Shown here one piece after another: positions 11,070 to 13,570 of a stretch of DNA of 46,726 bases. Numbering within the stretch: the stretch's first letter is position 1; each line of letters starts with the position of its first letter. Source of the stretch: Calditrichota bacterium (lineage in GTDB: Bacteria > Calditrichota > Calditrichia > JAJRVZ01); NCBI GenBank assembly GCA_024277055.1, contig JAJRVZ010000080.1, positions 1 to 46,726 of the forward strand, written 5' to 3'. The notes under the pieces were generated by a model that worked only from the letters and a program-made list of their open reading frames with translations, was not told where the DNA came from and searched no databases. The position numbers were made by a program, and so were the translations under genes.

Positions 11070-12326
11070 TCAAGTTCCCATTTCCCATGAGGCCAGATAT
11101 TGTTTCTGTTCTTCGGTCAATTCATCGATGGCGACGTGCATCGACTGTAATTTGGCCTGCGCAATCCAGTTTTCTATTTCCTGTGGAACGGGATGCACAC
11201 CGTTTTCCGTTTTATTCTTTATGGCGTATTCCGTAGCCAATGCCTGTGTTGCGAAGCTCATATCCATAACACTGGCCGGGTGTCCTTCGGCGGCTGCCAG
11301 GTTGATCAGCCTGCCCTGTGCCAGCAGGTTAATACGACGCCCGTCTTTCAGAATGTATTGATCGACATTTTCGCGAATGCCCGCTTTCTTGTCGGTGGCC
11401 AGCGCCTCGAGATCATCAATGTTTATTTCCACATTAAAATGACCGGAATTGGCAACAATGGCTCCGTCTTTCATTTTTTCAAAATGCTCTTTACGCAGCA
11501 CGTGGATATCGCCGGTAATGGTAACAAACAGGTCGCCTTCTTCCGCGGCTTCCAGCATAGGCATTACACGGAACCCGTCCATGGCGGCTTCCAGCGCTTT
11601 AATGGGATCGACCTCGGTAATGATTACATTGGCACCCATTCCCTTCATGCGGGTGGCAAAACCGCGCCCACACCAGCCGTACCCGGCAACCACGACTTTC
11701 TTCCCGGCAATCAGAAAATCCGTTGCGCGGATAATACCGTCCACAGTGGACTGCCCGGTACCGTAGCGGTTATCGAACAGAAATTTTGTTTGTGCATCAT
11801 TCACTGCAAATACCGGCATTTTCAACGCACCGTCCTGGTGCATGGCCCGCAGCCGGATCACACCGGTGGTGGTTTCTTCCATGGAACCGACGACCTGCGC
11901 GCATTTTTCCGGGTATTCGGAATGCAGCGTGGCCACCAGGTCGGCGCCGTCGTCCATCGTCACAACCGGATCGTGTTCGATGGCTGCACGGACATGATCG
12001 TAATAGGTTTTGTTGTCCTCACCGCGGATGGCAAATACCGAAATGCCGTAATCATGAACCAGCGACGCCGCCACATCATCCTGTGTGCTCAACGGATTCG
12101 ATGCGATGAGCACCAGCTCGGCGCCACCGGCCTTCAGTGTTCGTGCCAGGTTGGCCGTCTCTGCCGTGACATGCAGACAGGCGGACATTTTTTTGCCCAG
12201 TAATGGTTTTTCTTTTTCAAATTTTTCACGCACCTTTTGCAAAACGGGCATATCATTGTCTGCCCATTCGATGCGTTTTTTACCCTGAGGAGCCAAGGCG
12301 GCATCCTTAATATCGTGTTTAATCAT
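11070..12326 (-). CDS. ahcY: adenosylhomocysteinase
   Basis: 418 aa with the N-terminal [18 protein letters not shown] string, NAD-binding GYGWCGRG and the HFNVEI and EGRLINL-type motifs of SAH hydrolase. An RBS (AAAGGAG) precedes the ATG. Confidence 0.95.
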
Positions 12327-12340
12327 GCAAACTCCTTTTG

Positions 12341-12369
12341 AATAAAAGGCTGACTTTTCCAGACAGCCT
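12341..12369 (-). terminator. weak hairpin plus U-tract between the sigma-methyltransferase gene and ahcY (possible attenuator)
   Basis: The minus-strand RNA forms AGGCUG-(11-nt loop)-CAGCCU followed by UUUUAUU. The stem is only 6 bp, so termination would be partial at best. Confidence 0.3.
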
Positions 12370-12379
12370 GAATCTATCG

Positions 12380-13570
12380 TTACGGTTTTGATTTTTCCCA
12401 GATTTGTACAAAACTGGCCAGTCGTTTATTTTCCCGCAACTCCCAGTTCTCAACCAATTGTAGCCCTTCCTCTCTGAGCGCCTGCGAAAAGAAATCCGGC
12501 TCGAACCCCAGCCAGACATCGCTCATGGCATCAGCCATTAGTTTTTCTCTGTGTCGAAGAAAGTCAATGACGAACAAACGCCCACCGATTTTCAACAAGT
12601 GGCAATTGCGCCTTAAAACCTGAACCGGTTCCGCCAGATGATGCAGCACCAGTACAAAAAACAAGGCATCGAAGCGATTGTTCCCAAATGGCAGATGCTG
12701 CACATCCGTGCGCAGCAAATGGATGGATGGCAGCGATAATTCCGCTTTCTGTCTCCGCAGTACTTCCAACATATCCGGATTGCTGTCGCATGCATAAACC
12801 GTATGGGCGGACAGCGCCAGAGCAACAGAGATCGCCCCACCCCCGGAACCACAGTCGGCGATGCGCAGGTTTTTCCCTTCAGGCAGATATTTCAGCAGGC
12901 GGGAAATATCGCTTTCATTGATAAAATCCTTTTGAATAATCTGCCAGTTCTGACGGACGTTGCTGAAATAATTGCTGCAGCGTTTCTGGATCATTTGCGG
13001 CAGATCGAGCGGCGGGTCGAAAGGATTGATAAAGCGCAGTACATCCCCCAATTCGATCTCTTCAGCGGCACGGGCAAACCAGTCCGGCATAAACTGAAGT
13101 AAATACCATTTTTGAAAACCATCACGCGCCCGCTTCAATAATGACGTCACCGCCGGAATACTCATGTCCAGCCGCGCGGCCAGTTCCTCGTACGACCAGC
13201 CCTCCACTTCACGCATCAGCAGGACCTGTTTTTGCCGTTCGGGCAATCGATGGACGATCTGTTTCATCTGCTCCAGTCCGCTGACATCCTGTAGTTTTCC
13301 CTGCAACACTTCTTCCCGTATTTCTTCGTGCTCACGCCGGTGACGGAAATGAAAATAATTGATCACCCGGTTTCGGGTAACCGTAAACAGCCAGTTTTTC
13401 AAAGAACGGTTTTCATCCAGTTCATCCAGTTTCTGCAATGCCGTCAGGTATACATCCTGACAAAGATCGCGGGCGACATCTCCGTCGCCGATGGCATTTT
13501 TAATATAACTGTAAATTTCACTTTCGAAAGCATACAGAAACCGCCATTTTTTATCACGCTTCTGCGGCAT
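12380..13570 (-). CDS. ECF-type RNA polymerase sigma factor fused to a C-terminal class-I SAM-dependent methyltransferase-like domain
   Basis: Sigma region 2 reads [14 protein letters not shown]...[15 protein letters not shown]. Region 4 reads [42 protein letters not shown] methyltransferase fold follows, with motif [26 protein letters not shown] and [12 protein letters not shown]. All lie in a single uninterrupted frame. Confidence 0.85.

Follow-up and report, generated by a model that had tools for sequence, protein, structure and literature searches.

Sigma factors of the extracytoplasmic function (ECF) type are usually seen as responders to envelope or extracytoplasmic stress that are restrained by anti-sigma factors. 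Regulation by a fused C-terminal domain instead of a separate anti-sigma factor is also known, as the earlier note on the DNA studied here had pointed out, and has been described for ECF41 and ECF56 (SnoaL-like extensions), ECF42 (TPR) and ECF238 (Cys-rich) (PMC7826278, PMC8999054, PMC5766207). These types are mostly without an identified ligand (SnoaL, TPR), the exception being the metal-responsive ECF238 (Cys-rich). On the side of the sensor, the closest described system is SahR (Novichkov et al. 2014), which PMC4239095 summarises as an ArsR-family repressor that responds to S-adenosylhomocysteine (SAH), carries a methyltransferase-like domain and controls a core regulon of sahR, ahcY, metH, metF and metK. 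SahR is often encoded beside ahcY, according to PMC4239095 and bioRxiv 10.1101/2022.10.17.512643. Here we describe a gene from a Calditrichota bacterium (assembly GCA_024277055.1, contig JAJRVZ010000080.1, positions 1 to 46,726; this whole stretch is referred to as the window) that joins an ECF sigma factor to a SahR-type methyltransferase-like module and lies directly upstream of ahcY, the gene for S-adenosylhomocysteine hydrolase. Our comparisons suggest a previously undescribed combination of an ECF with a regulatory extension and a SahR-type sensor. We place the probability at roughly 60% that the protein is a one-component, autoregulated ECF sigma factor that responds to SAH, or to the ratio of S-adenosylmethionine (SAM) to SAH, and drives its own sigma-ahcY operon.

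The fusion gene (12380..13570, minus strand) encodes 396 amino acids from an ATG start and is followed on the same strand, after exactly 53 bp, by ahcY (11070..12326, minus strand; 418 amino acids), whose product scores 632 bits against TIGR00936 (cut-off 497.6). Within the spacer, a weak hairpin is followed by UUUUAUU (12341..12378, minus strand; -15.1 kcal/mol over 66 nt, z = -1.7), and the ahcY Shine-Dalgarno sequence AAGGAG sits 3' of this hairpin. The earlier note had proposed one uninterrupted 396-amino-acid reading frame with sigma regions 2 and 4 and a methyltransferase fold of ~200 amino acids behind them, ahcY 53 bp downstream on the same strand, a weak hairpin between the two genes and no adjacent anti-sigma gene. 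All of this agrees with our results: translation and Pfam recover the single reading frame, every peptide string that had been cited is found in the translation, and the fold is recovered by Pfam and Foldseek. No anti-sigma gene is adjacent in the window (Pfam), and none is conserved among the open reading frames flanking the fusion at 14 loci.

Within the first 155 residues, Pfam reports Sigma70_r2 and r4/r4_2 alone, with regions 1.1 and 3 missing. Region 2 (residues 17-74; 13349..13522, minus strand; PF04542, 41.9 bits) is the part for core binding, -10 recognition and DNA melting, and region 4 (residues 100-149; 13124..13273, minus strand; PF08281 and PF04545, Sigma70_r4_2 at 55.3 bits) holds the helix-turn-helix for -35 recognition. 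The NCBIfam model of the ECF superfamily (TIGR02937, sigma70-ECF) is passed with 74.7 bits (cut-off 42.9). None of the named ECF equivalogs in NCBIfam (SigZ, PG0214/GFO_1088 family, SigM) reaches its cut-off, with 91.4 vs 130 for NF058625, 83 vs 212 for the SigZ model NF007215 and 78.9 vs 168.65 for TIGR02959. Sequence matches in the PDB are RpoE, SigW, SigH and CnrH, and in an alignment of 47 orthologues the residues D35, Q38, W60, R66, N71, Y127, L144 and R147 are invariant. Pfam finds no ArsR-type HTH_5 or HTH_20 domain in the fusion protein, the N-terminus being that of an ECF sigma factor. Judged by its domain content and TIGR02937, the N-terminal part is an ECF (group 4) member of the sigma-70 family.

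The conserved C-terminal extension beyond the ECF core amounts to ~240 amino acids in the 47 orthologues, the defining size for such extensions being >50 amino acids. It opens with a linker of ~40 amino acids (residues 155-195; 12986..13108, minus strand; LPDW ... DxxRF.NPF.P) that only the sigma fusions have, with two short predicted helices and with P162, D176, R179 and F180 invariant. The remainder (residues 196-396; 12383..12985, minus strand) is assigned by Pfam, Foldseek and alignments to a SahR-type class-I methyltransferase-like module. Methyltransf_11 matches residues 239-334 with 66.3 bits, and overlapping class-I models, including Methyltransf_25 and _31, cover ~220-345. Landmarks of the module are a YF..W helix at its N-terminus, motif I (D239xGxGxG245), D262, D289, LHH309-311, P315, H340 and ADxMxDxWLGF346-356; the invariant columns in this part are W209, D239, G241, G245, H310, H311, P315, G330, H340, A346, D347, M349, D351, W353, G355 and F356. 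The cofactor-binding motifs I-III are intact. None of the NCBIfam methyltransferase equivalogs passes its cut-off, the best being CpaM (49.6 vs 180) and UbiG (47.9 vs 103). An 18-residue stretch that the earlier note had called a linker and likened to ArsR-methyltransferase proteins does align with those proteins; it corresponds to the YF..W helix of the module, not to a linker.

An AlphaFold2 model built from the 47-sequence alignment has a mean predicted local distance difference test (pLDDT) score of 84.6, exceeding 90 in the methyltransferase core, and places linker helices at residues 163-169 and 174-181 (pLDDT 60-77). Foldseek aligned the model with small-molecule class-I methyltransferases (3l8d, 1vl5, 1xxl, 3dh0, RebM and others; E ~1e-9). 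Sequence and fold searches of the PDB for a solved SahR-type structure gave generic methyltransferases only. From its motifs and the model, the C-terminal module is read as a class-I SAM-methyltransferase fold, Rossmann-like with motif I, an acidic motif II and motif III.

Apart from members of the fusion family, the module is matched best by proteins of 305-320 amino acids that join ArsR (HTH_5/HTH_20) to a methyltransferase domain. A profile search with the module returned at least 1510 clusters at E <= 1e-10, mostly of this architecture, together with stand-alone proteins of 207-211 amino acids whose annotation is that of ordinary methyltransferases. Among genome contigs, L017, L019, L021, L022, L023 and L025 have the module joined to ArsR; in L016, L018 and L020 (Clostridia/Eubacteriales; 270-280 amino acids) its partner is an HTH_17 domain of the excisionase type. 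The ArsR, HTH_17 and sigma architectures have a common signature, consisting of the D-G-G motif I, an acidic motif II, LHH..P, a Gly, D..H and DxW[LM]GF; LHH and DxW[LM]GF were present in 179/183 modules inspected. Compared with ArsR-methyltransferase proteins of SahR architecture, the fusion module is 22-33% identical, and ahcY directly follows the ArsR-methyltransferase gene in five of seven loci (L019, L021, L023, L025, L040), in agreement with the gene order published for SahR (PMC4239095; bioRxiv 10.1101/2022.10.17.512643). As for HTH_17, ahcY directly precedes the fusion in L020 and lies within 1.3 kb of it in L018, and this third architecture of the module may be another unrecognised SAH regulator. 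In a rough neighbour-joining tree, the sigma-fused modules form one clade whose nearest neighbour is the ahcY-linked ArsR fusion of L021. The SahR-like nature that had been proposed for the C-terminal domain is thus upheld by its nearest non-fusion relatives and by the specific signature common to both; on this evidence the module is homologous to the effector domain of SahR-architecture proteins with an ahcY context, the comparison being with those proteins and not with the SahR type protein itself. A separate observation concerns P0051, a metagenomic protein of 482 amino acids with an N-terminal SahR-type module (LHH, DVWLGF), a Cys-rich spacer and a second, ArsM-like-looking methyltransferase domain, which adds to the fusion partners of the module.

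A search of 5.8 billion proteins returned ~48 full-length orthologue clusters from independent assemblies (393-401 amino acids, 36-66% identity). One of them is from the cultured Caldithrix abyssi DSM 13497, where the fusion is annotated as 'sigma-24, ECF subfamily' in the complete genome (CM001402.1). Within one genome per GTDB species, full-length relatives occurred in Calditrichota alone (L001-L015). A gene for AhcY (80-84% identical) lies directly downstream on the same strand at all 13 loci with downstream DNA, with gaps of 14-287 bp, and likewise in C. abyssi; in all, the linkage is present in 15/15 informative Calditrichota loci. When flanking open reading frames were compared all against all at the 14 loci, the fusion gene and ahcY were the only conserved ones; the other recurrent 'families' were antisense frames inside ahcY. 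Adenosine is the other product of AhcY. We note that in C. abyssi an adenosine-specific kinase gene (PF04008; L082 5788-6270, CM001402.1) precedes the fusion-ahcY pair, lying two genes upstream of it.

Immediately in front of the fusion gene we found a bipartite, ECF-class motif, sCGAAAG(A)(T/A)TTT ... TGTATA(T), in which CGAAAG and TGTATA are always exactly 16 nt apart. The copy in the window (CAAAAG-N16-TGTATA) reads CAAAAGATTTTTACCGTTGAATTGTATA at 13610..13583 on the minus strand, is unique there and stops 12 nt short of the ATG. With one mismatch tolerated in each half, the motif is at the same place in 15/15 loci with upstream DNA; elsewhere, 4 sites occur in 188.5 kb (both strands) vs ~8 expected by chance. 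The -35-like half, CGAAAGATTTT, is also found upstream of the distant fusion genes in L208 and L212, where a Shine-Dalgarno sequence and start codon follow at normal distance. The motif is probably the cognate promoter of the fusion sigma factor, and would be the autoregulatory promoter of the operon. Other readings of the motif were considered and rejected: the pairings of a conserved RNA hairpin over it are inconsistent between loci, so that a DNA motif is preferred, and its positions do not fit a sigma-70 or Bacteroidetes-type promoter or a leaderless mRNA. A scan of metagenome contigs for further regulon members (GCGAAAGA-N15-TGTATAT) gave at least 120 matches, which we regard as background because none among the matches listed carried the fusion gene or ahcY.

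The two-gene unit is closed by a strong intrinsic terminator (11020..11045, minus strand; a 10-bp stem, then a T-run), and none of comparable strength lies between fusion gene and ahcY in the window. The hairpin in the spacer is not conserved in the other loci, and may act in the window as a partial terminator or attenuator. At gathering thresholds, no Rfam match to SAH/SAM riboswitches or other RNAs was obtained for the window or for six related loci with long spacers.

Further full-length proteins with the sigma-linker-methyltransferase order were revealed when 1.84 billion representatives were searched exhaustively with a profile; at least 150 clusters were found. Linkage to ahcY recurs in lineages of only ~27% identity: ahcY is downstream of the fusion encoding P0187 (L208), and the gene for P0190 (L212) is preceded by metK and followed by ahcY. 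The genes for P0186, P0188 and P0191 (L211, L209 and L210, respectively) are without a methyl-cycle neighbour. Fusions of a Bacillota clade (423-438 amino acids, DxWSGF variant; including P0196 from Dehalobacterium sp., NCBI name, GCA_000378805.1) adjoin an operon for a DmsABC-like oxidoreductase (molybdopterin / 4Fe-4S / DmsC; L203, L205, L207). Those of a populous Chloroflexota (Ktedonobacteraceae) clade (~434 amino acids, DLHYG variant of the C-terminal motif) have an overlapping amino-acid permease gene (AA_permease) downstream (L204, L206). The linker is recognisably conserved across the Bacillota and other distant fusions, which suggests one ancient fusion that later diversified. Linkage to methyl-cycle genes, on which the earlier note had based its proposal, therefore holds in part: it is found in Calditrichota and in two distant lineages, one of them also with metK, and not in the Bacillota and Chloroflexota clades. 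Because the latter are not linked to ahcY, a methyl-cycle reading applies to the Calditrichota clade and the two other lineages, for which it is well supported, and not to the whole family. Some of the distant loci have sequence elements of their own. Both L204 and L206 carry a conserved ECF-like upstream motif (ATGTTGAGAT...ACGTCTATTACT); in L212, a ~70-nt element (CCCGG..GGAAAC..AATATTGTTTTTAAT..TTATTTCAAGTTTTC..TAGTATAAAT) is present in both the metK-fusion and the fusion-ahcY spacers (~3520-3600 and ~5360-5440), and a GGAATT-N16-TGTATA site lies upstream of metK.

From these comparisons we infer the ligand, the direction of control, autoregulation, co-transcription and the transcription start. 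The C-terminal methyltransferase-like domain would stand in for a separate anti-sigma factor, retaining its cofactor pocket and binding SAH or reading the SAM:SAH balance. Occupancy by the ligand may order the lid helix at the N-terminus of the module (YF..W), which is tied to sigma region 4 by the ~40-amino-acid linker, and such ordering could alter the availability of regions 2 and 4 to core RNA polymerase. A rise in SAH would then yield an active holoenzyme at the conserved ECF-class promoter and transcription of the sigma-ahcY operon, and the hydrolysis of SAH by AhcY would close a negative metabolic feedback loop. Positive control is expected, since DNA is targeted by an ECF sigma factor and not by an ArsR winged helix.

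Several findings weigh against this scheme. No copy of the motif was found in front of ahcY or in the fusion-ahcY spacers, and at some loci the genes are 140-290 bp apart, with terminator-like hairpins in between, so that co-transcription of the two genes is not guaranteed everywhere. In 10 of 16 loci (L005, L006, L007, L008, L009, L010, L011, L012, L015, L082), the ATG comes 0-2 nt after TGTATA, abutting or overlapping it (TGTATATG or TGTATATATG, in frame V-Y-M). If transcription began ~8 nt past the -10 element, as is usual for ECF promoters, it would begin within codon 3 in those loci and the transcript would miss the start codon, for which there is no alternative. The window, L001, L003, L004, L013, L208 and L212 fit the promoter reading easily; the other loci do not. 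The ATG-abutting loci may have an unusual initiation geometry, or additional transcription from further upstream, or the motif may have an additional or different role, e.g., as an operator. With regard to the protein, the predicted template modelling score of the AlphaFold2 model is only 0.59 despite good single domains, any docking of the module on regions 2/4 being hypothetical, and the stand-alone members of the module family could be true enzymes. Finally, the Bacillota and Chloroflexota clades are adjoined by genes outside the methyl cycle.

Among the alternatives, the one that survives best keeps the architecture and changes the ligand to SAM (or to the SAM:SAH ratio, with inhibition exerted by SAM), so that falling SAM would activate the sigma factor or abundant SAM would silence it. 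The motifs of the cofactor pocket fit SAM and SAH alike, metK stands beside the fusion in one distant lineage, and PMC4239095 explicitly leaves the effector of the SahR-like regulator SamR unresolved. We nonetheless consider SAM unlikely as the ligand, given that the invariant partner of the fusion is the gene for the SAH-removing enzyme and not metK, and that the characterised paradigm, SahR, responds to SAH (PMC4239095).

A catalytically active methyltransferase tethered to the sigma factor is, in our view, slightly less probable still. It could methylate either a small molecule or a protein (the polymerase, or its own sigma factor), and ahcY would serve only to clear inhibitory SAH. The intact motifs I-III are compatible with such an enzyme, as are the invariant polar set H310, H311, H340, D347, D351 and W353, which resembles an active-site or substrate pocket, the annotation of the stand-alone members and the fact that the nearest solved folds are real enzymes. 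The module, however, is found on three DNA-targeting domains (ArsR, HTH_17 and ECF sigma), a pattern typical of a sensor; ArsR-methyltransferase proteins of such architecture are reported as SAH-responsive repressors (PMC4239095); and a single enzyme would have no need of a dedicated SAH hydrolase.

We regard it as improbable that the extension is a ligand-independent structural element that stabilises or restrains the sigma factor (a role proposed for some SnoaL-type extensions), with purely transcriptional regulation and with an ahcY linkage due to operon inheritance within one phylum. The neighbours of the distant clades (DmsABC-like oxidoreductase, amino-acid permease) and the three intermediate lineages devoid of a methyl-cycle neighbour would fit this explanation. 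It is countered by cofactor-binding residues that are invariant across sequences only 36-66% identical, and by the recurrence of ahcY linkage both at ~27% identity (once with metK) and where the module is fused to ArsR or HTH_17. Nothing was found in favour of two genes having been joined by misassembly or a frameshift, a possibility that the earlier note had wished to see checked, although a few short matches span only one half; such an artefact is excluded for practical purposes, because ~48 independent full-length clusters and the finished genome of the cultured C. abyssi carry the fusion with its conserved linker, and because the short matches end at contig ends or in adapter-derived sequence (adapter chimeras).

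Turning to the rest of the locus, the gene upstream of the fusion in the window encodes a predicted outer-membrane barrel, and just downstream of ahcY lies a gene for a hybrid sensor kinase of 1450 amino acids (6604-10956, minus strand) with N-terminal beta-propeller-like repeats and PAS, HisKA/HATPase and receiver domains; homologues of this kinase (31% identity) are also located ~3 kb downstream of ahcY in L001 and L004. No other methyl-cycle genes occur within the 46.7-kb window, where the neighbours are housekeeping genes, the hybrid histidine kinase and a haem-biosynthesis cluster. The latter is a contiguous run of haem-biosynthesis-type Pfam matches (31357-41559, minus strand) that comprises GlutR (hemA-like), Porphobil_deam (hemC), HEM4 (hemD), URO-D (hemE), a radical-SAM gene (possibly hemN-like), Ferrochelatase (hemH), a flavin amine oxidase (possibly hemY/G-like), ALAD (hemB) and Aminotran_3 (possibly hemL), and that is adjoined by a Cytochrom_C_asm gene. 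The genes hypA and hypB were identified at 28778-29776. Two sigma-54-dependent activators, one without and one with a receiver domain, are encoded at 640-1800 and 24298-25623 (both on the minus strand), and the organism thus uses sigma-54 regulation.

The earlier note knew of no description of this type of fusion. A methyltransferase-type extension, Calditrichota and adenosylhomocysteinase are likewise unmentioned in the main texts of the ECF classification (PMC7826278), a review on non-canonical ECFs (PMC8999054) and a paper on ECF evolution (PMC7671368), to the extent that these texts were available, and full-text literature searches (ECF/sigma with methyltransferase, SAH or Caldithrix) returned nothing relevant. 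The system would provide a concrete, testable case in which a small molecule of central metabolism directly controls a sigma factor, and a natural example of output-domain swapping on a conserved sensor (ArsR repressor, HTH_17, sigma activator). More tentatively, and at somewhat less than even odds, the sigma-methyltransferase fusions could form a widespread, undescribed class in which a SAM/SAH-binding Rossmann domain directly switches an ECF on or off and in which the sensor is interchangeable on ArsR, HTH_17 and sigma outputs. In that case, the Calditrichota members would be the first sigma factor set by the methylation potential of the cell, and this sensor would be coupled to an anaerobic molybdoenzyme in the Bacillota sister clade and to an amino-acid transporter in that of Chloroflexota. 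A compact, orthogonal, ligand-responsive sigma-promoter pair may also be of use in synthetic biology. Experiments are feasible because C. abyssi has been cultured and carries the fusion-ahcY system.

How the fusion relates to known systems can be set out at the level of promoter, extension and sensor. ECF promoters of Bacillus subtilis have the -35 element tGAAACnTTTt and the -10 element CGTA (PMC5758882). The upstream motif of the fusion closely resembles the SigW/SigV-type promoters of this set in its GAAA(C/G) followed by a T-tract at -35, in (C/T)GTA at -10 and in a spacer of ~16 nt; it differs at the first positions (CGAAAG vs TGAAAC, TGTA vs CGTA) and in that the element abuts the start codon in many loci. 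With ECF41, ECF56, ECF42 and ECF238, the fusion has in common a conserved domain of >50 amino acids C-terminal to the ECF core, no anti-sigma gene nearby and a conserved, putatively autoregulatory promoter. The extension, in contrast, is here a SAM-methyltransferase fold, and whereas no ligand is known for ECF41 and ECF42, homology and gene context strongly suggest a specific cytoplasmic metabolite for the fusion.

In physiological purpose, i.e., SAH-induced ahcY expression, the fusion would be functionally analogous to the derepression exerted through SahR or to SAH riboswitches, neither of which was seen here; the latter (Rfam SAH_riboswitch) are RNA elements, without a match in the window or the six related loci. 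SahR provides the nearest parallel. The class-I methyltransferase-like effector module is homologous to that of ArsR-methyltransferase proteins with the SahR architecture (D-G-G, LHH..P, D..H, DxWLGF), the regulator gene is immediately upstream of ahcY on the same strand, and the presumed logic, by which more SAH leads to more AhcY, is the same. SahR differs in that its output domain is an ArsR winged helix and not ECF sigma regions 2 + 4, and in that it represses at a palindromic operator, whereas control by the fusion would be positive, through promoter recognition by RNA polymerase. The conserved 40-amino-acid linker is peculiar to the sigma fusions, and in Calditrichota ahcY alone is linked, metK, metH and metF not being seen with it. 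The Calditrichota system may therefore be viewed as one in which the winged-helix repressor of the SahR type would have been swapped for a sigma activator, with the sensor and its target gene kept.

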